A DNA stretch of 30,253 nucleotides from Chloroflexota bacterium (lineage in GTDB: Bacteria > Chloroflexota > UBA11872 > UBA12225): the NCBI GenBank assembly GCA_016199265.1, contig JACQGX010000284.1, forward strand, positions 1 through 30,253, given 5' to 3'. Made by a program: the position numbers and the translations under genes. This document shows positions 10,742 through 27,707 of the stretch, piece after piece; the stretch's first letter is position 1; the number at the start of each line of letters is the position of its first letter. A model generated the notes under the pieces. That model was not told the DNA's origin, ran no database searches, and saw only the letters and a program-made list of their open reading frames with translations.

Positions 10742-12676
10742 CTACAGACCGCCGGCCGGGGACTCGGTTCGCAGCCAGGAGGCGGCGCCCATGACCACGG
10801 TGAGCAGGGACACGAGCACGGCGCCTTCCGGCTGGTTGCTCTGGTCGAGCGCCATTGCCCACAGGATCGCGCCGACTATCGACGCGATAAGCACAATGAC
10901 GGCCAGCGTCGAGTGGCCGTGTTGCACCAGCCAGCGGCGCACACCGATCGTGAACACGGCGGCGACCGCAAAGATCAACAGGAGCAGACGCAGGGCATCA
11001 TCGGCAACGAAGACGACTAGCGGCGCAAGCGCGACGAATGCCACTTCCAGCGGCAGAAAAGCGCGCGGTGGCGTTTCGCCGTCATCCGATCGCATCCCCG
11101 GCCGCAGCGCCCTCGCCACCTTGAAGATCCGCACAAACCGCAGCAACCGAAGCGCGCGCAGCGTCTTGAGCGATTGAAGATTGAGCGCGACCAACAACGT
11201 TGGCAGGATGGCTAGGAGATCGACGATCCCCCACGGGCCGAGCACGTACCTCCAGCGGCTCGCGGCGTATACGATGCTGAGCGCGTAGTCGGCAACGAAA
11301 CAGACGGCAACCGCGATCTCCAGCCAGAAGAAGAGATCTCCGTATGCCTCCAGCAGCGCGGCGTCGTGCTCTAGCAGCGTGACCACAACCGACACGACGA
11401 CCAACGTCACGACGACCTCGGTGAGCGTCGCGGCCTCCTGCGAACGCTGGTCGACGTATGCCTGCCTCAGCCAGCTCACCAGCTGCTGCTTCCATGTCGT
11501 GCGGGGCACCGCCGCCGCGACCGCCGGTTTTGGTGGCAGCGCGGGTGCCACCGGCGCCGGCGGCGGTTCGGCGATACCGGTCTTCTGAACAGGTGCCGGC
11601 CCTTGGGCGCCACCGGCCCCTCGATCGGATCGCGCCACGCTTCCCGCTGCAGCCGGGTCGGTAGCCTGCCGGACCGACGTATCGGGCGCGGTGGTCGTGG
11701 CTGCGGCAGCCGTGGTAGGTACCGTCGCCGCGCCGGCCGCGCCGGCCGCGCCGGTCGTCGCAGCCGCCGTGTTCGCCGCGACCGCCGGCGGCGCGGTCGC
11801 GGTAGGTGCGTCGGCGGTCGCCACCACAGGCGGCGCCGGTGCGGGTAATGGGGCAGCAGACGAAGGCGGCGGCGATGCCGGTGCCGCCGAAGCGTCAGGC
11901 AAGGTCAGGTGCAGCAGTTGGGTGTTGATTGTCGGTGCGGCCGCCGGCGCCGGAAAGTCTGGTGATGGCGCAAATGCCGGTGGCTCTGGAAACGCCGGCG
12001 CCGGCGAAAACAGCGGTGTCGTCCCAGGTTCGGGAGTCTCGCTCGAGACAGGAGCAGACCGACCGGCGATGGCGAGCGGCGCCGCCGGAAACACCGGCGG
12101 CGCGGCAAACTCTGGTGCCGCCGAAAACGCCGGAGCCTCCGGCGCAGCCGGGGACTCGACCGTCGCCAGCCGGATGCCGGCCGCGAGCCCGGCCACCACC
12201 GCCGGGTCGAGTGCCCTAGCCGGCGGCGCCGCCTCGGTCGAGGCCGCGCCTGCCGCCGGCCCGCCCAGCGCGAACCCGGCACGGCCGGCATGTCGTTGCG
12301 TCGCCGGACTCTCCCACGTAGGGATGAAGGGGACTGAGGCGCTCGCCGGGCCACCATTTCCCCTCTCGCCCGCGGGCGAGAGGGGGCCAGGGGATGAGGG
12401 GACGTTCGGCGCCGGTCGGGGTTCGACCGTCGCGCCGCAGCGGGTGCAGAACTTCGCCCCGGCGCGCGCCGGCGTGCCGCAAGCGGCACACCAATACTCG
12501 ACGACAGTAGCCGCGGCCGCACCGGCCGCATGCGCCGCAGTCGCCGGGGCCAGGGCCGCACCGCAGCGGGTGCAGAACTTCGCCCCGGCGCGCGCCGGCG
12601 TGCCGCACTTCAGACAGCGGCTCGTCGCGCCGTCTGGCGCAGTCTCGTGTGGTATGGCCTGCGGTACGGAAGTCAC
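10742..12676 (-). CDS. Membrane protein. N-terminal double zinc ribbon (2 x CxxC-x10-CxxC), roughly 300-aa Pro/Ala-rich low-complexity linker, C-terminal voltage-sensor-like ion_trans domain (S1-S4 plus 3-4 further TM). No recognisable K/Na/Ca selectivity filter.
   Basis: CLKCGTPARAGAKFCTRCGA and CAACGTPARAGAKFCTRCGA. S2 FFWLEIAVAVCFVADYAL, S3 WGIVDLLAILP, S4 LRALRLLRFVRIFKVARALRP with Arg at every third position. GTG start with GGAGG RBS. Confidence 0.7.
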   Translation of the reverse strand: MTSVPQAIPHETAPDGATSRCLKCGTPARAGAKFCTRCGAALAPATAAHAAGAAAATVVEYWCAACGTPARAGAKFCTRCGATVEPRPAPNVPSSPGPLSPAGERGNGGPASASVPFIPTWESPATQRHAGRAGFALGGPAAGAASTEAAPPARALDPAVVAGLAAGIRLATVESPAAPEAPAFSAAPEFAAPPVFPAAPLAIAGRSAPVSSETPEPGTTPLFSPAPAFPEPPAFAPSPDFPAPAAAPTINTQLLHLTLPDASAAPASPPPSSAAPLPAPAPPVVATADAPTATAPPAVAANTAAATTGAAGAAGAATVPTTAAAATTTAPDTSVRQATDPAAAGSVARSDRGAGGAQGPAPVQKTGIAEPPPAPVAPALPPKPAVAAAVPRTTWKQQLVSWLRQAYVDQRSQEAATLTEVVVTLVVVSVVVTLLEHDAALLEAYGDLFFWLEIAVAVCFVADYALSIVYAASRWRYVLGPWGIVDLLAILPTLLVALNLQSLKTLRALRLLRFVRIFKVARALRPGMRSDDGETPPRAFLPLEVAFVALAPLVVFVADDALRLLLLIFAVAAVFTIGVRRWLVQHGHSTLAVIVLIASIVGAILWAMALDQSNQPEGAVLVSLLTVVMGAASWLRTESPAGGL

Positions 12677-19828: not shown

Positions 19829-19858
19829 CGAGGCACCCCTCCCCCCGGGGGGAGGGGT
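19829..19858. promoter_or_regulatory. 30-bp perfect palindrome GGCACCCCTCCCCCC/GGGGGGAGGGGTGCC between divergent genes, immediately upstream of csoR. Candidate CsoR operator, overlapping a TGCTATAGT extended -10-like element.
   Basis: Known CsoR operators are GC-rich pseudo-palindromes with a C-tract/G-tract core. This one sits about 20 nt upstream of the csoR start and 10 nt downstream of TATAGT. Confidence 0.5.
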
Positions 19859-19877
19859 GCCCACGAGAGGGAGCCAT

Positions 19878-20174
19878 ATGCCATCGGCGCAGGGACGAAC
19901 GCAGATTGTGAATCGGTTGAAGAGCGTCGACGGCCATCTGCGCGGCGTGATCAAGATGGTCGAAGAAGACGCTTACTGCATCGACGTGATCCAGCAGTTG
20001 CGCGCCGTCCAGGCCGCGATCAATAGGGTCAACGCACTGCTCTTGGCCGACCACCTCGACACGTGCGTCACGACCGCGATCCGAAGCGACGAGCCGACCG
20101 AGCGCGAGCGTGTCATCGGCGAACTGCTCCGCGTCTTCGAACACGGTGCCGATGCAGCAGGCAGCAGGCAGTAG
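19878..20174 (+). CDS. csoR: CsoR/RcnR-family copper-sensing transcriptional repressor
   Basis: [43 protein letters not shown] matches the CsoR core, including the YC...H...C metal ligands (C..., H..., C in DTC). GAGAGGGAG RBS. Located directly upstream of copA. Confidence 0.85.
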
Positions 20175-20188
20175 GCAGCAGGCAGCGG
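20154..20188 (+). repeat. Tandem heptamer array GCAGCAG GCAGCAG GCAGTAG GCAGCAG GCAGCGG spanning the csoR stop codon and the copA start region.
   Basis: Read directly. The csoR TAG stop is the TAG inside the third unit. Confidence 0.85.
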
Positions 20189-20196
20189 CACGCGAC

Positions 20197-22860
20197 ATGA
20201 AGACACTCGATCACGCGGCACAGATGAACACCGCGACGGATACGGGCCAGCGCCAGACCGGCGCGAACGGCGCCGCCGAGCGTACAGCAGTCAGCGGCAG
20301 CGCCGCGCCGCCGGCGGCCGCCGAGCTTACCTTCCCCGTCACCGGCATGACGTGCGCCTCGTGCGTCCGGCGCATCGAACGCTCGCTCTCCAAGGTCGAA
20401 GGCGTTGTCGAGGCCAACGTGAACCTCGCCACCGAGCAGGCGACGGTTCGTTACGATCCCAGCGCCCCGACGCTCGCCGAGGCGCCGCCGATGGCCGTCT
20501 TCCGCGCCGCCGTCGAGCGCGCAGGATACGGCGTCCGTGAGACCGAGCCGGCCTCGCCCGCAGCGGGGGCGGCCATGATCGAAAGCTCGGAAGCGCGCGC
20601 GGCCGCGGACGAGCGGCGTGAGACCAGGACGGTGTTGGCCAAGACCGGCCTCTCGCTTGGCGTCGCCGCGATCATCATGGGGCTGATGTTTTTGCCGGCT
20701 CGCCTGATCGGCGTGCCGGCACTGCCGTGGAGCATGGAGCTGCTCAACTGGCTGTTCTTGGTCCTGGCGACGCCGGTGCAGTTCTGGGCCGGTTGGGATT
20801 TCTACCGCGCGACGTGGGCGGCCGCGAAACACGGCGCGACGAATATGAACACGCTCGTCGCCGTCGGCACGAGCGCCGCCTACGTCTACAGCGCCTTCGC
20901 CACATTCTTTCCGCAGGTGCTGGCCGGTGCCGGGATCATGCCCGAGACGTACTTCGACAGCTCGACGATCATCGTCGGCTTGATCCTGCTCGGTCGCTAC
21001 CTCGAGCATCGCGCGCGCGGCCAGACGAGCGCCGCGATCAAGAAGCTGATCGGGCTGCAACCCAAGACGGCCCAGGTGATCCGCAACGGCGAAGAACACG
21101 ACGTGCCGGTCGAAATGGTACAGATCGAGGACATTGTCCGCGTGCGCCCGGGCGAGAAGATCCCCGTCGACGGCGTCGTGCTCGAGGGCCGCTCGGCGGT
21201 CGACGAGAGTATGCTGACCGGCGAAAGCCTGCCGGTAGAGAAGGGGCCGGGCGATCAGGTGATCGGCGCCACGCTCAACGCCACCGGTGCGTTCACGTTC
21301 CGCGCGACACGCGTCGGTACCGACACGACGCTCGCGCAGATCGTGAAGCTGGTGCAGGAGGCGCAGGGCTCCAAAGCACCGATCCAGCGCCTCGCCGACC
21401 TGATCTCGTCGTACTTCGTACCGGTCGTTCTCGTCGTGTCCGCGTTCACGTTCGGCGTCTGGTACGTTTTCGGTCCGGAGCCGCAAGTCACCTTCGCGCT
21501 CACCACCTTCATCGCCGTCCTTATCATCGCCTGCCCGTGCGCGATGGGCCTGGCGACGCCCACCGCCATCATGGTCGGCACCGGCCAGGGCGCCGAGCAC
21601 GGCATCCTCATCCGCGGCGGCGAGGCGCTCGAGCAGGCGCACAAGGTGCGCGCGATCGTCCTCGACAAGACGGGGACGCTGACGCAGGGCAAACCGGCGC
21701 TGACGGACGTCAACTCAGTCCAAAGTCCAAAGTCCAAAGTCCAAAGTAATGGGCCATCCGGCTGGGGACTGGGGACCGGGGACCGGGGACTGCTGCGCCT
21801 CGTCGCCGCTGCCGAGCGGAACTCGGAGCATCCGGTGGCGGCGGCGATTGTGGAGGGGGCGCGGGCGCGCGGCGTCGAGCTTGTGGAGGCGGAACGATTC
21901 GAGTCGGTGACGGGGCGGGGCGTGGCTGCCGTCGTCGATGGGCATTTCGTGCTCGCGGGCAACCAGGCGCTCCTGGCCGATTACAGCGTCTCACTCGACG
22001 GGCTTGAGACGCAGGTAGCGGCGCTCGCACGGGAGGGCAAGACGCCGATCTACGTCGCCGTTGACGGCGCGGCGGCGGGCGTGCTGGCGGTCGCCGATAC
22101 GCTCAAGCCGACGTCGCCGCAGGCGGTGGCGCAGCTCGAAGCGCTCGGGCTCGAGGTCTGGATGCTCACCGGCGATAACCGGGCGACCGCCGAGGCGATC
22201 GCGCGGCAGGCCGGGATCGTACCCGAGCGCGTGCTCGCCGAGGTACTGCCCGATCAGAAGGCGGCGCAGGTCAAGGCGCTCCAAGCGCGCGGCCTGCCGA
22301 CCGCCATGGTCGGCGACGGCATCAACGACGCGCCGGCGCTGGCGCAGGCCGATCTGGGGATCGCCATCGGCACGGGGACGGATGTCGCCATGGAGGCGTC
22401 CGATGTCACGCTCGTCGGCGGCGATCTGCGGGGCGTCGTCGCGGCGATCGCCCTGTCGCGCCGGACGATCGACGTCATCCGCCAGAACCTGTTCTGGGCG
22501 TTCGCCTACAACGTCCTGCTCATCCCCGTCGCGATGGGCGCGCTCTACCCGTTTTTTGGCATGCTGCTGAACCCGGGATTGGCGGCCGGCGCGATGGCGC
22601 TCTCGAGCGTGTCGGTCGTTACCAACTCGCTCCGGCTCCGTGGCTTCCGGGTGCCGGATGATCCGCGCGATATTACACACCCACCGCTCGGCGCCCGCCT
22701 GCGCGAGTGGAGCTATCTCGCCGGAATCGCGGCCATCGCGCTCGCGCTCGGCGCGGCCATCATGTGGTGGTCGGCCGGCCGCGGCCCGGCGGACCAGGGC
22801 GAGCAGCAAATGGCGACAACTCAGGCCGATTCAACGCAACACAAAGGAGGCACACAATGA
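20197..22860 (+). CDS. copA: Copper-translocating P1B-type ATPase. Track ORF starts at GTG 20110; an ATG at 20152 is also possible.
   Basis: N-terminal HMA domain [13 protein letters not shown] motif [20 protein letters not shown] phosphorylation site. GDGINDAP hinge. Contains a 26-aa in-frame heptamer-repeat insertion after [16 protein letters not shown]. Confidence 0.95.
21718..21791 (+). repeat. Two adjacent tandem heptamer arrays inside the copA coding sequence: (GTCCAAA)x4 then (GGGGACY)x4. In-frame; encodes [25 protein letters not shown].
   Basis: Located right after the [16 protein letters not shown] phosphorylation loop. The equivalent linker in characterised CopA proteins is about 15 aa shorter. 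Confidence 0.85.
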
Positions 22861-23078
22861 GCAAGGTGGTTCTAGACGTTCCCGAGATCTCGTGCGCGCA
22901 CTGCTCGCAGGCGATCACGCAGGCGCTGCAGCCGCAGGCAGGCGTCGAGAAGGTACGAGTCGACGTGCCGAGCCGGAAGGTCTATCTCGACTACGACGAG
23001 AACACGATCTCCATCGACAAGGTGAAGGCGCTCCTCGCCGAGGAGGAGTATCCCGTCGCCAACATCAGCAACGCCTAA
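22857..23078 (+). CDS. copZ: Copper chaperone, heavy-metal-associated (HMA) domain protein (73 aa).
   Basis: ATGA start/stop overlap with copA. AAAGGAGG RBS. Metal-binding motif [11 protein letters not shown]. Strong hairpin terminator follows. Confidence 0.8.
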
Positions 23079-23105
23079 GGGCGAGTGCGGTAGGTCCGTC
23101 GCATC

Positions 23106-23160
23106 GCCGGGGGGAGCCACGGATTTCCGTGGCTCCCCCCGGCGTCTTGATTCTGACTTC
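23106..23160 (+). terminator. Rho-independent terminator after copZ. Stem GCCGGGGGGAGCCACGG, loop ATTT, CCGTGGCTCCCCCCGGC, then GTCTTGATTCTGACTTC.
   Basis: 17-bp perfect stem, tetraloop, T-rich tail. Confidence 0.8.
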
Positions 23161-23250
23161 TCCAGCCCAGCCATTGCGTGCGGCAGCCGCCGCGCCCTAT
23201 AATCTAGACGCAATTTGTTGTTGCTATTCATTCGCAATAGGGAGAAGGGA

Positions 23251-23442
23251 ATGGTCGCGAACTTCGCAACACGTACCGCCACCCGTACCGCCACGATCAG
23301 CATCAATCTCACCATTCAGGCCGTCGTCTTCCTCGCGATCGCCGGCCTGGTGCTCTGGACGATGCTGTTCACGCCGTACGCCAACGTACACGATGCGCTG
23401 CACGCGCTGCGTCACGCGCTCTACATCATCCCGTGCCATTAG
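23251..23442 (+). CDS. CbtB-like small membrane protein (single TM, C-terminal His/Cys metal-binding tail HDALHALRHALYIIPCH).
   Basis: AGGGAGAAGGGA RBS. One TM helix. C-terminal HDxxHxxRH....PCH resembles the CbtB family terminus. 63 aa. Confidence 0.45.
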   Translation: MVANFATRTATRTATISINLTIQAVVFLAIAGLVLWTMLFTPYANVHDALHALRHALYIIPCH

Positions 23443-23443
23443 G

Positions 23444-23478
23444 GCAGTAGGCAGTAAGCAGTAGCCGGTGGGCAGTTG
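23444..23478 (+). repeat. Tandem heptamer array GCAGTAG GCAGTAA GCAGTAG CCGGTGG GCAGTTG, starting 2 nt after the cbtB-like stop codon. Same GCAGYAG family as 20154-20188.
   Basis: Read directly. Confidence 0.8.
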
Positions 23479-23613
23479 GGCGCTGTCTCGACTAGGGCGC
23501 GTACGCGCGCTTGGCGGAGGGTCAAGCGCGTGCGCCGGACGCGGCTTGTAGGCGTGTGCAGCGCCGGCTGACGCACCGGCTCAGAAGAGAAGAATTACGG
23601 AAGTGGAGGACCG

Positions 23614-24189
23614 ATGATGCGTCCTATGGGATTCGTGCGCCTGCCGCTCGTGCTGGGCGTGGCGCTGTTGCTGCTGTTGATAGGCAGCGTGGTTGCGTTC
23701 GGTCAGGGCGCAGCCGGAGCCGGCGGCACGATCACGCTGTCGACCAGGCCGGAGGCACACGAGATCGTGCCCGACGAGGTGGAGGCGCCGACGAGGTTCA
23801 TTGTCGAGGCTCGCGGGCCACAGGGACCGCTGCGCAATGCGTACATCGACGTCGAGATGACCGCGCCGACCAGCGGCGCACTCGCATCGACCGATATTCC
23901 GGCGATCGAGAGCACGACGCTGATGAAGAGTCGCTTCGGCGCACCCGACGGCCGGCTCGAGTTCGATTACGTGGTGCCGATCCGCGGTACGTACAAGGTG
24001 AAGGTGCAGGCAATCCCGGCGCCGGGTGCGACATTCCAGCCGATCGCCAAGGAATTCGATCTGATGGTCAGCGAGCGGCAATCGGAGGTCGTCAACTTCT
24101 ACGCATTGATTGCCGGACTGTTCGTGGTCGGCTTGGCGGCCGGCGCCGTGCTCGGCTACGCCAACCGGGGAAGCCGCGCCGCCGTCTAG
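23614..24189 (+). CDS. Bitopic membrane-anchored extracytoplasmic protein (N-terminal signal/anchor, roughly 130-aa beta-rich domain, C-terminal TM). Unknown function.
   Basis: GGAAGTGGAGGA RBS. Signal peptide. C-terminal TM LIAGLFVVGLAAGAVLGY. Paralogous organisation to the next gene. Confidence 0.5.
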   Translation: MMRPMGFVRLPLVLGVALLLLLIGSVVAFGQGAAGAGGTITLSTRPEAHEIVPDEVEAPTRFIVEARGPQGPLRNAYIDVEMTAPTSGALASTDIPAIESTTLMKSRFGAPDGRLEFDYVVPIRGTYKVKVQAIPAPGATFQPIAKEFDLMVSERQSEVVNFYALIAGLFVVGLAAGAVLGYANRGSRAAV

Positions 24190-24207: not shown

Positions 24208-24831
24208 ATGAAACGGAACCCACTTGCCTGGGCGATTGCCGGTGTTGCGGCGATCGCCGCCATCGCCCTCCTCGTCGTCGCCGTGATCGGCGAGGGCGAG
24301 CGTTACGGCGGCCACGGCGAAGAAGAGCATGCGCCGCAGGCGGCCCCGCAGCGCGAAGTGACGAATGGCGGGTACAAGCTGTCGATCACTCTTACACCCG
24401 ACGCCGGTAAAGTCGGCGAGGTCGTCACCATCGTCGGCCGGGTCGCCGACGCCAGCGGGAACATGGTGCGCAACGTGCGCTTCGAGCTCACCAGCCACCA
24501 CCTCGAGGACGATGTCGAGGTGTTCAAGACCACGTTCGTCGCACCGGACGGCGTGTTCAATTGGGGCAACCAGTTCTGGGATGGCACAGAGCACGAGATT
24601 CGCATCACCGCCAGCCCCGGGCCCGAAGCGTCGGCCCAATTCGCGCCGCTGACGCTCCGGCGCATCGTCGAGGTCGAGGCGGTGCCACCGTCGGTCGGCG
24701 TACAGGTGCGCGCGATGTTGTGGCTCCTGTTACCGGTCGCGCTCGGTCTCGCCGCCGGCATACCGCTCGGGCTGCGGGCACCGCGCCGGGCGACCACGTT
24801 CGAGCGCACTCCGGCAGCGGCACACGCGTAA
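24208..24831 (+). CDS. Bitopic membrane-anchored extracytoplasmic protein with His-rich segments (HGEEEH, SHH). Paralog-like to 23614..24189. Possible metal-binding periplasmic domain.
   Basis: N-terminal TM, central domain sharing the motif FVAPDG / FGAPDG with the previous protein, C-terminal TM. Position downstream of copZ and the cbtB-like gene. Confidence 0.5.
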   Translation: MKRNPLAWAIAGVAAIAAIALLVVAVIGEGERYGGHGEEEHAPQAAPQREVTNGGYKLSITLTPDAGKVGEVVTIVGRVADASGNMVRNVRFELTSHHLEDDVEVFKTTFVAPDGVFNWGNQFWDGTEHEIRITASPGPEASAQFAPLTLRRIVEVEAVPPSVGVQVRAMLWLLLPVALGLAAGIPLGLRAPRRATTFERTPAAAHA

Positions 24832-24852: not shown

Positions 24853-27285
24853 TTGGCCGTCCGGTTTCCCTGGTATTGGGCGAAAGGCAGAGGGGAATGC
24901 TGCATTCGACCTGCGCCTTTCGCCCTTCGTCATGTTCCTGCAGTGATTAGTCAGACACCCACAGCATCGCACTCGCCCGCCGCTTCTCCGACCGCTTCAG
25001 GCGCCCGCGGCCTCCGGGCCCAACTTGCCCGCACGTACGTTGCGGCGCTCGGCCGGATGGACAACCCAAGTCTCCTGCCGCTCGCACTCGCCCAAGCCGG
25101 CTCGCTCGTACCCGATGGCCCGAACGGCTTGGCGCTGCTGCACGAGTTTGCCGGCCGTCCGGAATGGCCGGCGCGCTACCTCGCCGCGCGGCAGCTCGGC
25201 GAGCGTGGCGCCGCTGCCGGCGCCGAAGCGCAGGCGGCCGCCTGGCCGGTGCTTCTGTATTTGGCGGCCGATACGGAACGATGGGTGGCCGAAGGCGCGG
25301 CCTGGGGCCTCGGCGCGCTCCTCCGCGCTGATCCAGAACGGTGGGGGCCGGCCTTTCTGGCGGGGTTTGGGGGAGAGGCGACGGCGGCTGCGGTACGACG
25401 CGCGTTGCTCTTCGGCGTTGTGCCGGCGTTGCGGGAGGGCCCTGACGGTGCGCGGCGCATCGCACTCGAGGTGATCGATTGGGCGGCGGGCGATCAATCG
25501 AGCGCGACGCGGCAGCTCGGCTCGTTGATTGTCGGACGCGAAGCGGCGGAGCACGCGCCGGACACAGCGCTCGATCTGGTGGAGAGATGGGCGTCGTCCG
25601 GCGATCCCGCCCGCCAATGGCAGGCCGCGCGCGCGCTGACGGCGAGCCTGCGCGCGATCGACGAGCAGCGAGCGGCCGCGATCGTGACCCACCTCGAAGC
25701 CTCTCCCGATCCCGCCGTGCGCAACGCGCTGCGCGGTGCCCTGAGGGAGGGGACCGAGGACGAAGACGAGGTGGTCGGGCACGGACCGCAACACAACAGA
25801 ACGGGCGGAACAGGGGACATGGCCGTATCACACGGGGCCTTGGCACCGGCCTCCACCACCGCTAGGCCCGCGCCCGCCGAATACACGACCAACCGCGCCC
25901 CCACCGTTCCCGTGGCACCCACGCCTGACGGCGCCGCCTCCGCCGTATCTCCGTCCCCCGGACCCTGGCAGACGACGGCCGACATTCCGGTCAGCGACGA
26001 CTTGATCGACCAGGTCATCGGGCAGGACCGCGCGGTCGAGATCGTGCGTCTCGCCGCGCGGCAGCGGCGCTTCGTCCTGATGGTCGGCGAGCCGGGTACG
26101 GGCAAGAGCATGCTCGCTGCAGCGATGGCCGAGATGATGGGCGCCGACGATCTCGAGGACGTACTGGTGCTGCCCAATCCGGAGAGCCGGATTACGCCGC
26201 AAGTGGAGGTCACGCCGGCGGCGCAGGGTGAGCAGGCCGTGCGGGAGGCGAAGAAACGGCGCGGCGAAGCCGAGACGGCGATTACGTTTCTGTTCTGGGC
26301 CGCGTCGATCGCGACGACGCTCATTGCCGGCTGGTACGCGCTGGCGACCAGGAGCGCCGTACCGGGAATCGCCGCGGCGGTCGTGGTCGCAGTGCTGTGG
26401 GGCGTGCGCCGCATGTTCCGCGCGCCGGCGCGTCACCCGGTGCCGAAGCTGCTCGTGAACAACGCTCGGGCCGTCGAGTCCAACCGGGCGCCGCTCGTCG
26501 ACGCCACGGGGTTCCACGCCGGCGCGCTGCTCGGCGACGTCCGGCACGACCCGTTCCAATCGGGCGGCTACGAGACGCCGCCGCACGAGCTCGTCGAGCC
26601 AGGCGCGATTCACCTGGCGCATCGAGGGGTGCTCTTTATCGACGAGGTTTCGACGCTCTCGATCGAGTCGCAGCAATCGCTGCTGACCGCGATCCAGGAA
26701 AAGCGGTTCCCGATTTCGGGCCGCACGCTCGGCTCCTCGGGCACGATGATCCGGTCCGCGCCCACGCCGTGCGATTTCCTGCTCATCCTTGCGGGGAACA
26801 TGGAGGATGTGCAGAAGATGCATCCTGCGCTGCGCTCGCGCGTCCGCGGCTACGGCTACGAGATCTATGTGAACGAGGACATGCCGGACAGCGAGGAGAA
26901 CCGGGCCAAGCTGGCACGCTTCTGCGCACAAGAGGTGCGGAAAGACCGCAAGATCCCGCACCTCAGCCGGGCAGCGGTCGACGCGGTGATCGACGAGGCG
27001 CGCATTCGCGCCGGAACCAGGGACCGGTTGACGACCCGCCTGCGCGAGCTAGGCGGGCTCATCCGTGCCGCCGGCGACCTCGCCGTGCAAGAGGGCGCAC
27101 CGCTCATTGAACCGCGCCACGTCATCGCCGCCCGCCAGAACACCCGGACGCTGGAAGAGCAAATGGAGGCGAGGAAGTCTACTTCGCCACGTCTTCCAGC
27201 TCCGGCAGTAGCACCACGCTCTCCTGCTCGTTCGGATCGGTCCGCGCGAGGATGGCGGTACACGGCTCGGTTTGGCTCAGGTTGA
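24853..27285 (+). CDS. Fusion protein. N-terminal HEAT/AlkD-like helical repeat domain, then an archaeal-type LonB AAA+ module with a two-helix transmembrane insertion between Walker A and Walker B. No Lon protease domain. Start uncertain; an ATG at 25057 is possible.
   Basis: DLIDQVIGQDRAVEIVRLAARQRRFVLMVGEPGTGKSML (Walker A). LEDVLVLPNPESRITPQVEVTPAAQGE. TM hairpin AITFLFWAASIATTLIAGWYALA / GIAAAVVVAVLWGV. GVLFIDEV (Walker B). RFPISGRTLGSSGTMIRSAPTPCDFLLILAGN. HPALRSRVRGYGYEIYV. All are LonB-type signatures. The ORF ends about 60 aa after the AAA lid, inside the antisense of the cupin gene. Confidence 0.65.
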   Translation: MAVRFPWYWAKGRGECCIRPAPFALRHVPAVISQTPTASHSPAASPTASGARGLRAQLARTYVAALGRMDNPSLLPLALAQAGSLVPDGPNGLALLHEFAGRPEWPARYLAARQLGERGAAAGAEAQAAAWPVLLYLAADTERWVAEGAAWGLGALLRADPERWGPAFLAGFGGEATAAAVRRALLFGVVPALREGPDGARRIALEVIDWAAGDQSSATRQLGSLIVGREAAEHAPDTALDLVERWASSGDPARQWQAARALTASLRAIDEQRAAAIVTHLEASPDPAVRNALRGALREGTEDEDEVVGHGPQHNRTGGTGDMAVSHGALAPASTTARPAPAEYTTNRAPTVPVAPTPDGAASAVSPSPGPWQTTADIPVSDDLIDQVIGQDRAVEIVRLAARQRRFVLMVGEPGTGKSMLAAAMAEMMGADDLEDVLVLPNPESRITPQVEVTPAAQGEQAVREAKKRRGEAETAITFLFWAASIATTLIAGWYALATRSAVPGIAAAVVVAVLWGVRRMFRAPARHPVPKLLVNNARAVESNRAPLVDATGFHAGALLGDVRHDPFQSGGYETPPHELVEPGAIHLAHRGVLFIDEVSTLSIESQQSLLTAIQEKRFPISGRTLGSSGTMIRSAPTPCDFLLILAGNMEDVQKMHPALRSRVRGYGYEIYVNEDMPDSEENRAKLARFCAQEVRKDRKIPHLSRAAVDAVIDEARIRAGTRDRLTTRLRELGGLIRAAGDLAVQEGAPLIEPRHVIAARQNTRTLEEQMEARKSTSPRLPAPAVAPRSPARSDRSARGWRYTARFGSG

Positions 27286-27613
27286 TTGGGACGTGCGGTA
27301 CGCCCGCCGGGATGTACAGGAATTCGCCGCTGCGTACCACCAGCCGCTCGCGCAGCCCTTCCCCGTAGAGCATTTCTGCTTCGCCGCTCAGGACGTAGAC
27401 GGTCGTTTCGTGGTCCTGATGCAGGTGCGTCCGCGCGCGGGCGCCCGGCGGAATCGTCAGAAGGTGCATGCAGATGGCCTTCGACCCGGCGTTCTGCGCC
27501 GAAATACCCTCAAAGTAGGAGAGCTGCTGCTTGCCCGCGTAGGTCTGCCCCTGCCCGGCACGGATCACCACACAACCGGTCTCCCGACCACCCACTGTTT
27601 GCTCGGTCACCAT
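27179..27613 (-). CDS. Cupin-domain protein (cupin_2 conserved barrel).
   Basis: GGAGGTG RBS 6 nt before ATG 27613. Cupin motifs THLHQDHETTVYVLSGEAEM and GEFLYIPAGVPHVPIN. 3' end overlaps the convergent LonB-like ORF by about 107 nt. Confidence 0.8.
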   Translation of the reverse strand: MVTEQTVGGRETGCVVIRAGQGQTYAGKQQLSYFEGISAQNAGSKAICMHLLTIPPGARARTHLHQDHETTVYVLSGEAEMLYGEGLRERLVVRSGEFLYIPAGVPHVPINLSQTEPCTAILARTDPNEQESVVLLPELEDVAK

Positions 27614-27707
27614 TGAGACACCTCCGCCCTCCGGCGGCACCGCATGGCACCGCCGGGTGAAGGGCCGCTACCGCAAGAATCGTGCCTGCGCGCAGTCTCA
27701 CCCCGTC

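Follow-up and report, generated by a model that had tools for sequence, protein, structure and literature searches.

The window analysed here, i.e., the whole stretch of 30,253 nucleotides (nt) from contig JACQGX010000284.1 of a Chloroflexota bacterium, contains on its forward strand a cassette of four genes: cbtB, two genes that we designate X and Y, and a gene for a protein in which N-terminal HEAT-like repeats are joined to an archaeal-type LonB AAA+ module. This last gene, hereafter the HEAT-LonB-AAA gene, is the subject of this report, and the coordinates of its features and surroundings are collected in Table 1. The preliminary description of the locus had offered two explanations for the lack of a protease domain in its product, namely a membrane-anchored AAA+ unfoldase or adaptor that works without proteolysis, or a recently truncated LonB whose tail reads through into the neighbouring gene. 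The former is supported by our data, as about 30 proteins share the conserved architecture, with the ATPase and pore-loop residues invariant.

In the AAA+ module, all of the LonB hallmarks named in that description were found (VIGQ, GEPGTGKS, LEDVLVLPNPE, GVLFIDE, and GYGYEIYV), and the proposed transmembrane (TM) insertion between Walker A and Walker B was evident from hydropathy peaks at amino acids (aa) 407-452 of P0001, the GenBank version of the protein (a 742-aa "AAA family ATPase" from a Chloroflexota metagenome-assembled genome, or MAG, with ATG 25057 as its start). The LonB TM-insertion feature and the loop definitions used here were taken from PMC9569914. By PDB sequence search, the closest solved structure is the Thermococcus LonB AAA+ module (4zpx), and the hairpin region aligns to the TM region of the Thermococcus protein in this match. 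The NCBIfam LonB profile TIGR00764 was matched by aa 372-772 over profile positions 4-399 of 608 with a score of 490 bits, which falls under the curated equivalog cut-off of 516.6 bits because the protease half of the profile (positions 400-608) is unmatched; the LonB-type lid PF20436 was also matched. When 17 family members were aligned (alignment A2), G344-S351 of Walker A, D529 and E530 of Walker B, R593 and R595, and R663 and R670 were invariant, as were pore loop-1 GALLGDVRHDPFQSGG and the SSGxM sequence, and sensor-1 N581 was conserved in at least 90% of the members. Altogether, the results show that a complete hexamer-type LonB AAA+ motor has been kept, with Walker A and B, sensors, Arg finger, pore loops, lid, and membrane anchor.

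No match to the Lon protease domain PF05362 was found in the window protein, and tblastn with six Lon C-terminal domains (C-domains; three from true LonBs and three from degenerate relatives) against all six frames of the 30-kb window returned noise, with short hits and a best E value of 0.018. The earlier statement that no Ser-Lys protease domain is encoded downstream thus holds for every frame of the window, which also disposes of the suggestion that a frameshift might conceal such a domain. Since the protease domain is absent and the TIGR00764 score lies under its cut-off, the protein, as judged from its sequence, is LonB-derived but is not a LonB protease. The same is seen in its orthologues: approximately 30 homologues of 585-816 aa share the N-terminal domain (N-domain) and the LonB AAA+ module and lack Lon_C, and true LonBs with PF05362 rank only lower in the homologue listing. 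These orthologues are 45-73% identical, and all of them stop 10-100 aa past TLEEQ, with tails that are unrelated in sequence. The assemblies behind them are independent of one another and include contigs of 4.28, 2.95, and 1.43 Mb; among the species-representative genomes, records of 3.0 and 3.8 Mb hold orthologues as well.

That the gene is a pseudogene, i.e., a LonB that lost its protease domain recently and in this MAG only, with a tail running into the cupin gene, or else an assembly or frameshift artefact, is scarcely credible when set against these findings. Although the sequence derives from a MAG, the gene overlaps the cupin gene by 107 nt with a tail of noncoding composition, and distant relatives with the same N-domain do carry a Lon-like C-domain, about 30 orthologues from independent assemblies stop at the same place, the AAA core has a strong coding signal (GC content at third codon positions, GC3, of 0.87) with all catalytic residues conserved, no protease remnant was found in any frame of the window, and even in the distant relatives the C-domain is catalytically inactive already.

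The open reading frame (ORF) of the gene, 24853..27285 (+), encodes 810 aa from a TTG codon. The annotated start at ATG 25057 drops the first helix, GLRAQLARTYVAALGR, which is conserved in all orthologues, and for this reason the true start more likely lies upstream of 25057, at the in-frame GTG 24943 or at TTG 24853. At the other end, the gene had first been drawn to 27613; the ORF in fact stops at 27285, and 27613 is near the far end of the cupin ORF. Other details of its 3' end were borne out, in that the convergent cupin is a bona fide gene by its Pfam match, the two ORFs overlap by the shared stretch 27179-27285, and the stop said to come about 60 aa after the AAA lid lies 47 aa beyond the LonB lid as matched by Pfam (aa 703-763 of the 810). 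GC contents at codon positions 1/2/3 are 0.71/0.47/0.87 in the core of the gene and 0.65/0.80/0.45 in the 40-codon tail, whereas the cupin frame across the tail bases has coding-like values of 0.69/0.37/0.86. Because the tail is noncoding-like at the third position and the cupin frame is coding-like there, the overlap is read-through: the tail is an incidental extension to the next chance stop in a GC-rich genome, over cupin-shaped sequence. Of the truncated-LonB explanation, the read-through therefore stands, while a recent truncation or pseudogene does not, given that about 30 orthologues end alike. The cupin gene was absent downstream of the examined orthologues, and as it is not conserved beside them, we place it outside the system.

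Table 1. Features of the cassette, its surroundings, and orthologous loci; locations are window positions unless a locus (L) is named
Feature	Location	Strand	Detail
CsoR-type repressor	19857-20174		PF02583 8e-27
CopA P1B-ATPase	20110-22860		heavy-metal-associated (HMA) domain and CPC motif
CopZ-like HMA protein	22860-23078		
Terminator-like hairpin	23105..23144	+	18-bp stem, 16 G-C pairs, T-rich tail; weak Rfam hairpin matches
cbtB, first cassette gene	23251..23442	+	63 aa, single TM, C-terminal HDxxHxxRHxxxxxPCH
X	23614..24189	+	191 aa: signal/TM segment, immunoglobulin (Ig)-like beta domain, C-terminal TM; paralogue of Y
Y	24208..24831	+	207 aa: N-terminal TM, 8-strand beta sandwich, C-terminal TM
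HEAT-LonB-AAA gene	24943..27285	+	start uncertain: TTG 24853, GTG 24943, or ATG 25057
N-terminal HEAT-like repeat (AlkD-like) alpha-solenoid	25009..25752	+	about 250 aa
Low-complexity linker	25753..25965	+	Pro/Ala/Thr-rich, disordered; length varies between orthologues
Archaeal-type LonB AAA+ module including lid	25966..27162	+	TIGR00764 1e-146; 4zpx 3.9e-128; LonB_AAA-LID Pfam match
VIGQ motif	26008-26025	+	
Walker A GEPGTGKS	26086-26109	+	
Two-helix membrane-anchoring hairpin between Walker A and Walker B	26281..26406	+	hydropathy
Hydrophobic helices of hairpin	26281-26346 and 26359-26406	+	aa 409-430 and 435-450 of P0001
LonB pore loop-1	26521-26595	+	
Walker B GVLFIDE	26626-26646	+	
Sensor-1	26782-26799	+	
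Arg finger region	26821-26850	+	
Sensor-2	27037-27078	+	
TLEEQ, last conserved stretch	27148-27162	+	
Unconserved 40-aa C-terminal tail	27163..27285	+	GC3 composition; unrelated orthologue tails
Cupin_2 gene, convergent neighbour	27179..27640	-	Pfam Cupin_2 8.3e-15
Cobalamin riboswitch	L006		43 bits
Cobalamin riboswitch	L008		39.9 bits
Cobalamin riboswitch	L045		107 bits
Cobalamin riboswitch	L089		100.9 bits
Cobalamin riboswitch	L091		114.6 bits
Cobalamin riboswitch	L093		103 bits
Neighbours cbiH (cbiH60) and cbiX	L045, L093		
Neighbours cbiX and DUF3209	L092		
Neighbours cobO-cobN and hem/cbi genes	L006		
Neighbours cbiMNQO and Fur-family genes	L003		
Neighbour cobW	L001, L090		

Relatives with a degenerate or absent protease domain were found by scanning species-representative genomes with the full-length alignment A2 and by a second homologue search; the genome scan was swamped by archaeal LonB, the relevant loci being L009-L011, L014, L033, and L045, plus L012 and L044. 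Proteins of 765-800 aa from Paenibacillus and Chengkuizengella have the same N-domain and AAA+ module and differ from the window protein in keeping a Lon-like C-domain of about 170 aa, whereas the 600-aa Brevibacillus proteins, like the window protein, have no C-domain; some relatives, of 1010 aa, carry an extra C-terminal BluB domain (TIGR02476, 258 bits against a cut-off of 150). Aligned to true LonBs, every C-domain retained in the family was found to lack the catalytic Ser of GDSAS, the replacements including SFNHY, HADFA, IDDLS, and ESGNG, and the Ser is also missing in the archaeal paralogue of L012 and in a Planctomycetota MAG protein (L044). It had been argued that orthologues with a protease domain would make the window gene a truncated pseudogene; joined to the same N-domain, such a domain was found only in distant relatives, such as those of Paenibacillus and Chengkuizengella, and without the catalytic Ser, which points to a long-standing loss of proteolysis and not to a truncated pseudogene here.

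In a neighbour-joining (NJ) tree, which is crude and has no support values, the bacterial CbtB-linked proteins were separate from archaeal LonB, and protease-less and pseudo-protease forms were interleaved, with Brevibacillus nested in Paenibacillaceae. This interleaving suggests that an already inactive protease domain may have been deleted repeatedly. Taken together, the alignments show a family with no predicted proteolytic capacity, in which the Ser appears to have been lost and the domain then shed in several lineages, including that of the window protein. Database names of the members are "AAA family ATPase," "ATP-binding protein," and "ATP-dependent protease LonB," and the last of these is misleading for the several members that bear it.

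One of the BluB fusions, in L093 (2662-5694; P0194, also P0195 and P0196), joins HEAT, LonB-AAA, and a Ser-less Lon domain to the 5,6-dimethylbenzimidazole synthase BluB (TIGR02476, 5e-77); its gene has a cobalamin riboswitch (103 bits) in front of it and cbiH60 after it. The L012 gene (65-3123), from a Hydrothermarchaeota MAG, encodes an archaeal LonB paralogue in which GDSAS has become IDDLS; this gene is flanked on the other strand by a separate HEAT-domain gene and cbtB. Contig L017, also from this MAG, bears an ordinary-looking LonB gene and ends before the catalytic motif. P0226, P0228, and P0269 (e.g., the "LonB" of about 600 aa from Paradesulfitobacterium aromaticivorans) represent a bacterial LonB-like group without a HEAT domain, and their protease domain is likewise without the catalytic Ser, reading FTFEECPLA against EGVEGDSAS.

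The HEAT/AlkD-type helical repeats proposed for the N-domain were confirmed as an alpha-solenoid of the HEAT-like repeat (HLR) fold. An AlphaFold model made from an alignment of 14 N-domains (A1) comprised 14 helices at a predicted local distance difference test score (pLDDT) of 96.5, and Foldseek searches with it against PDB returned generic ARM/HEAT solenoids only. The fold is like that of the HLR proteins AlkD, AlkD2, and AlkC, but identity to them is only 9-15%, no Pfam DNA_alkylation match was obtained for the N-domain at E values up to 0.1, and the window domain is fused to a membrane ATPase and shows no sign of DNA binding. The net charge of the HEAT domain ranges from -6 to +9 across the family, being near-neutral (-6) in the window protein, and no Cys or His is conserved in it; on account of this charge and the lack of conserved Cys and His, a DNA-binding or metal-binding role was rejected. 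The HEAT domain is likely a cytoplasmic protein-docking or adaptor module, not a glycosylase or a metal site. Full-length matches to the family HEAT profile also occur as stand-alone proteins of about 210-260 aa (P0048-P0055, P0060, P0062, and P0065), which might represent either domains encoded separately, as in L012, or pieces truncated by short contigs.

We then consider the genes that precede the HEAT-LonB-AAA gene. The window CbtB matched Pfam PF09489 above its cut-off (4.4e-7; 30.4 bits against 27) and TIGR02459 under its cut-off (5e-6; 26.8 bits against 64.4). X gave a weak Filamin match in Pfam, and Y, for which the homologue search reached close relatives only, matched no Pfam or NCBIfam family. 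With an AlphaFold2 model of Y (pLDDT 82.7), Foldseek against PDB recovered generic Ig/macroglobulin-like folds only, while in alignment A3 two acidic/His motifs of Y, SHHLEDD and FWDGTEHE, were seen to be conserved. Close Chloroflexota orthologues share 54-71% identity in CbtB and Y, and X and Y are fused in L006, L008, and L014. The possibility that X, Y, or the fused XY represents CbtA was rejected, as no match was found in Pfam (E values up to 10) or NCBIfam.

The cassette was surveyed by phmmer and profile searches over the six-frame ORFs of all fetched loci. CbtB, X, and Y were found to adjoin the AAA gene in the window and in 14 further loci (L001, L003, L004, L006, L008, L010, L011, L014, L045, L089, L090, L091, L092, and L093), and to lie beside it in every family locus with readable flanks, in the order CbtB-X-Y-AAA or X-Y-CbtB-AAA and often with overlapping stop and start codons. 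All three were missing in the profile searches from about 70 ordinary archaeal LonB loci, the sole exception among archaeal loci being CbtB alone beside the degenerate L012 paralogue. The cassette was seen in Chloroflexota, in Paenibacillaceae/Brevibacillus, and in other bacteria. The Paenibacillus, Chengkuizengella, and Brevibacillus relatives, whose AAA proteins are about 45-50% identical to the window protein, share with the window the N-domain, the AAA+ module with its TM hairpin, and the X/Y/CbtB/AAA operon, but their gene order is X-Y-CbtB-AAA and not CbtB-X-Y-AAA. Strong cobalamin riboswitches were found upstream in these relatives.

Like CbtAB (PF09489/PF09490, TIGR02459), the cassette includes a CbtB homologue with a C-terminal His/Cys motif, and some of its orthologous loci, though not the window, are linked to B12 riboswitches and cobalamin biosynthesis genes; unlike CbtAB, it has no five-TM CbtA, and CbtB is paired with two TM-Ig-TM proteins and an AAA+ ATPase. 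CbtA (PF09490) was not among the listed neighbours of the cassette in the examined loci, and because CbtA is missing, the cassette is not a canonical CbtAB.

A minimal cassette is found in L092 (1891-6645), where CbtB, X, and Y accompany a 477-aa LonB AAA module without HEAT or protease domain and are followed by a CbiX and 2Fe-2S fusion, with overlapping stop and start codons, and then by DUF3209. A 246-aa gene of this locus, considered as a split HEAT domain, was found to be Y-like instead, and the L092 cassette is therefore simply without HEAT. On another contig, P0047 (ENA, 479 aa) begins with a Y-like half, continues with a stretch 78% identical to the N-terminal part of the HEAT domain, and finishes in an Arg/Gly/Pro-rich, frameshift-like sequence. 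This chimera is probably the product of a frameshift introduced in sequencing or assembly, but it confirms that Y and the AAA gene are neighbours on that contig as well.

Cobalamin riboswitches identified with Rfam models immediately precede the cassette, or the operon that contains it, in six loci from two phyla, and cbiX, cbiH, or cobN is adjacent in four orthologous loci. In L006, a gene for a BtuF-like binding protein overlaps the stop codon of the AAA gene. Fur-family regulator genes stand directly beside the cassette in L001 (12382-12786) and L003 (5746-6204 and 10541-11005), two riboswitch-less loci of the Chloroflexota type in which they may provide an alternative metal-dependent control.

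We favour, with moderate confidence, the interpretation that the window protein is a LonB-derived motor without proteolytic function that serves as a subunit in a non-canonical module for cobalt acquisition under B12 control, as predicted from domain content and conserved gene neighbourhood. In this model, the cassette would be repressed by B12 and expressed when B12 is scarce, serving cobalt acquisition. Co2+ would be captured on the external side of the membrane by CbtB and the membrane-anchored, Ig-like X and Y, and the LonB-derived ring would sit in the membrane under the CbtB, X, and Y helices, where ATP hydrolysis and the substrate-threading pore loops would pull on or remodel the single-pass CbtB, X, and Y. 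Such pulling might gate or power the transfer of metal, or else drive assembly and disassembly of the complex, and the partners would not be degraded; the HEAT domain would dock or recruit a cytoplasmic partner. A more ambitious version, which we hold to be unlikely, would make the assembly a primary-active metal importer that replaces CbtA, with a hexameric AAA+ ring (12 TM helices) and CbtB, X, and Y as the translocation path and ATP-driven pulling by the protein-threading pore loops as the step that moves or releases Co2+ into the cytoplasm; ion uptake would then be energised by a repurposed unfoldase.

Several points weigh against the interpretation as a cobalt-acquisition motor. The cobalt-uptake role of CbtB is a comparative-genomics prediction, and its NCBIfam name carries the word "proposed"; CbtAB was reportedly predicted to be a cobalt transporter by Rodionov and co-workers in 2003, and the riboswitch logic and the role of CbtB are both said to derive from comparative genomics. 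No precedent is known to us for AAA+ unfoldases as drivers of ion transport or uptake; moreover, no polytopic permease is conserved in the cassette, which leaves the ion path across the membrane unexplained, and the Ig-like folds of X and Y are generic. The NJ tree behind the repeated-loss argument is crude, and L004, L010, and L011 have no metal-related neighbours. In the window itself, no cobalamin riboswitch was detected (at the gathering threshold, and at E values up to 1 in 22800-23700), no B12 gene is present, and the upstream neighbour is a copper-efflux operon behind a terminator-like hairpin. Because of these three features of the window, its presumed cobalt/B12 link, and with it the metal specificity of the cassette in this organism, rests on orthology.

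The copper-efflux unit, csoR-copA-copZ, is complete and occupies 19857-23144 of the window, and the hairpin at 23105..23144 is predicted to separate this operon from the CbtB cassette. Given that the cassette comes directly after it, that the window has no riboswitch, and that Fur-family regulators flank the cassette in L001 and L003, the cassette might handle another metal (copper, nickel, or zinc) here, or a corrinoid, as the BtuF-like protein of L006 would fit, in which case the cobalt assignment could not be transferred from the orthologues. We regard this as very improbable, however, since the strong hairpin stands between the copper operon and the cassette, the identity of CbtB and Y among close Chloroflexota orthologues is high enough to count against it, the two motifs of Y are shared between Chloroflexota and Paenibacillus, and riboswitch-controlled members also occur within the protease-less, Chloroflexota-type branch (L006 and L008).

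The B12 genes next to some cassettes raise another role, that of a chelatase-type AAA+ motor or metallochaperone like CobS/CobT or ChlI/ChlD that feeds CbiX, CbiK, or CobN. Such a motor would take over cobalt at the membrane and drive or channel metal insertion into the corrin precursor by these enzymes, with the HEAT domain docking the chelatase or holding the tetrapyrrole. Adjacency or translational coupling to cbiX (L045, L092, and L093) and cobN (L006), the fusion to BluB, and the rank of Mg_chelatase as the top Pfam match by E value all speak for such a role. Yet the Mg_chelatase and Sigma54 matches are short generic P-loop stretches in a module that is unambiguously LonB, no chelatase gene is near the cassette in many loci, the window among them, and the L092 protein has no HEAT domain although cbiX follows directly; small CbiX-type chelatases are, as far as we know, not known to need ATPases. 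We therefore judge the chelatase role decidedly unlikely. Membership in the Mg-chelatase or sigma-54 activator families was itself rejected, as the best stretch matched in PF01078 covers only profile positions 3-53 of 207, and TIGR02030 and TIGR02442 score far under their cut-offs in the relatives.

The conserved threading machinery also bears on the fate of the partner proteins. The ring could serve as a membrane-protein extractase, whether general or dedicated, pulling CbtB, X, Y, or other proteins from the bilayer for a separate protease such as FtsH, so that a potentially toxic metal importer is shut off post-translationally; the ATPase would then be a regulator outside the transport cycle. 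This would agree with substrate-threading pore loops conserved as in bona fide LonB, with the membrane anchor, with ancestry in a quality-control protease, and with the presence in the operon of small membrane proteins that cross the bilayer once and have short tails in the cytoplasm. Riboswitch-controlled co-expression, however, would produce the remover exactly when the transporter is needed, loss of the catalytic Ser in several lineages argues that degradation was abandoned and not outsourced, and no protease gene is conserved near the examined loci. We consider an extractase rather unlikely and retain the cobalt-acquisition motor as the preferred interpretation.

Compared with archaeal LonB (Thermococcus onnurineus, PDB 3K1J/4ZPX; TIGR00764; MEROPS S16 LonB), the AAA+ module of the family is 49-57% identical and shares the TM hairpin, the long pore loop-1, the RKH-type loop, and the PF20436 lid. 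Unlike archaeal LonB, the window protein has no protease domain, carries an additional N-terminal region in which HEAT-like repeats (about 250 aa) are followed by a linker, and resides in a bacterial host; unlike ordinary LonB loci, its own has the fixed operon partners CbtB, X, and Y. The nearest functional analogy is FtsHi of chloroplasts, a membrane-anchored AAA+ protease lineage in which proteolysis was lost and the ATPase kept: these pseudo-proteases are reported to have lost the protease residues, kept the ATPase, and been re-used as a translocation motor. FtsHi, however, belongs to FtsH/M41, acts on imported protein substrates in a eukaryotic organelle, and keeps its dead protease domain, whereas the present family belongs to Lon/S16, is associated with a metal system, and has the domain deleted. 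LonC of Meiothermus taiwanensis, whose protease is reportedly retained while its AAA-like domain is dead, appears as a mirror image, in that one Lon activity was lost in each case and the window family keeps the ATPase and lost the protease.

No published description of the HEAT-LonB family or of the CbtB-X-Y-AAA operon was found in a literature search. The analysis turns proteins annotated as "AAA family ATPase" or "LonB" into a defined family with a testable role, that of a Lon-derived motor without proteolysis, in which the order of loss appears to have been the catalytic Ser first and the domain thereafter, and in which the motor is a fixed subunit of a CbtB-containing membrane module under B12-riboswitch control. 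If the proposed role is correct, the motor would be an unexpected energy-coupling or assembly component of prokaryotic cobalt acquisition, a step that limits B12 production; it would provide a bacterial case, comparable to FtsHi, in which a membrane AAA+ protease has become a motor that no longer degrades proteins, and it would explain the partners of CbtB in genomes without CbtA. Cultured hosts include Brevibacillus gelatini, B. parabrevis, Paenibacillus vietnamensis, P. naphthalenovorans, and Chengkuizengella species, which makes the hypothesis directly testable.

As for the rest of the window, the HEAT-LonB-AAA gene is followed by genes for the cupin, a glucose/sorbosone dehydrogenase-like protein, and a sulfatase on the other strand, none of them conserved beside the orthologues. 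Further upstream, a 644-aa ORF at 10742-12676 (-), which failed the GC3 filter used in gene calling, has two zinc-ribbon-like CxxC...CxxC repeats at its N-terminus, an Ala/Pro-rich low-complexity middle part, and an ion-channel-like multi-TM C-terminus.

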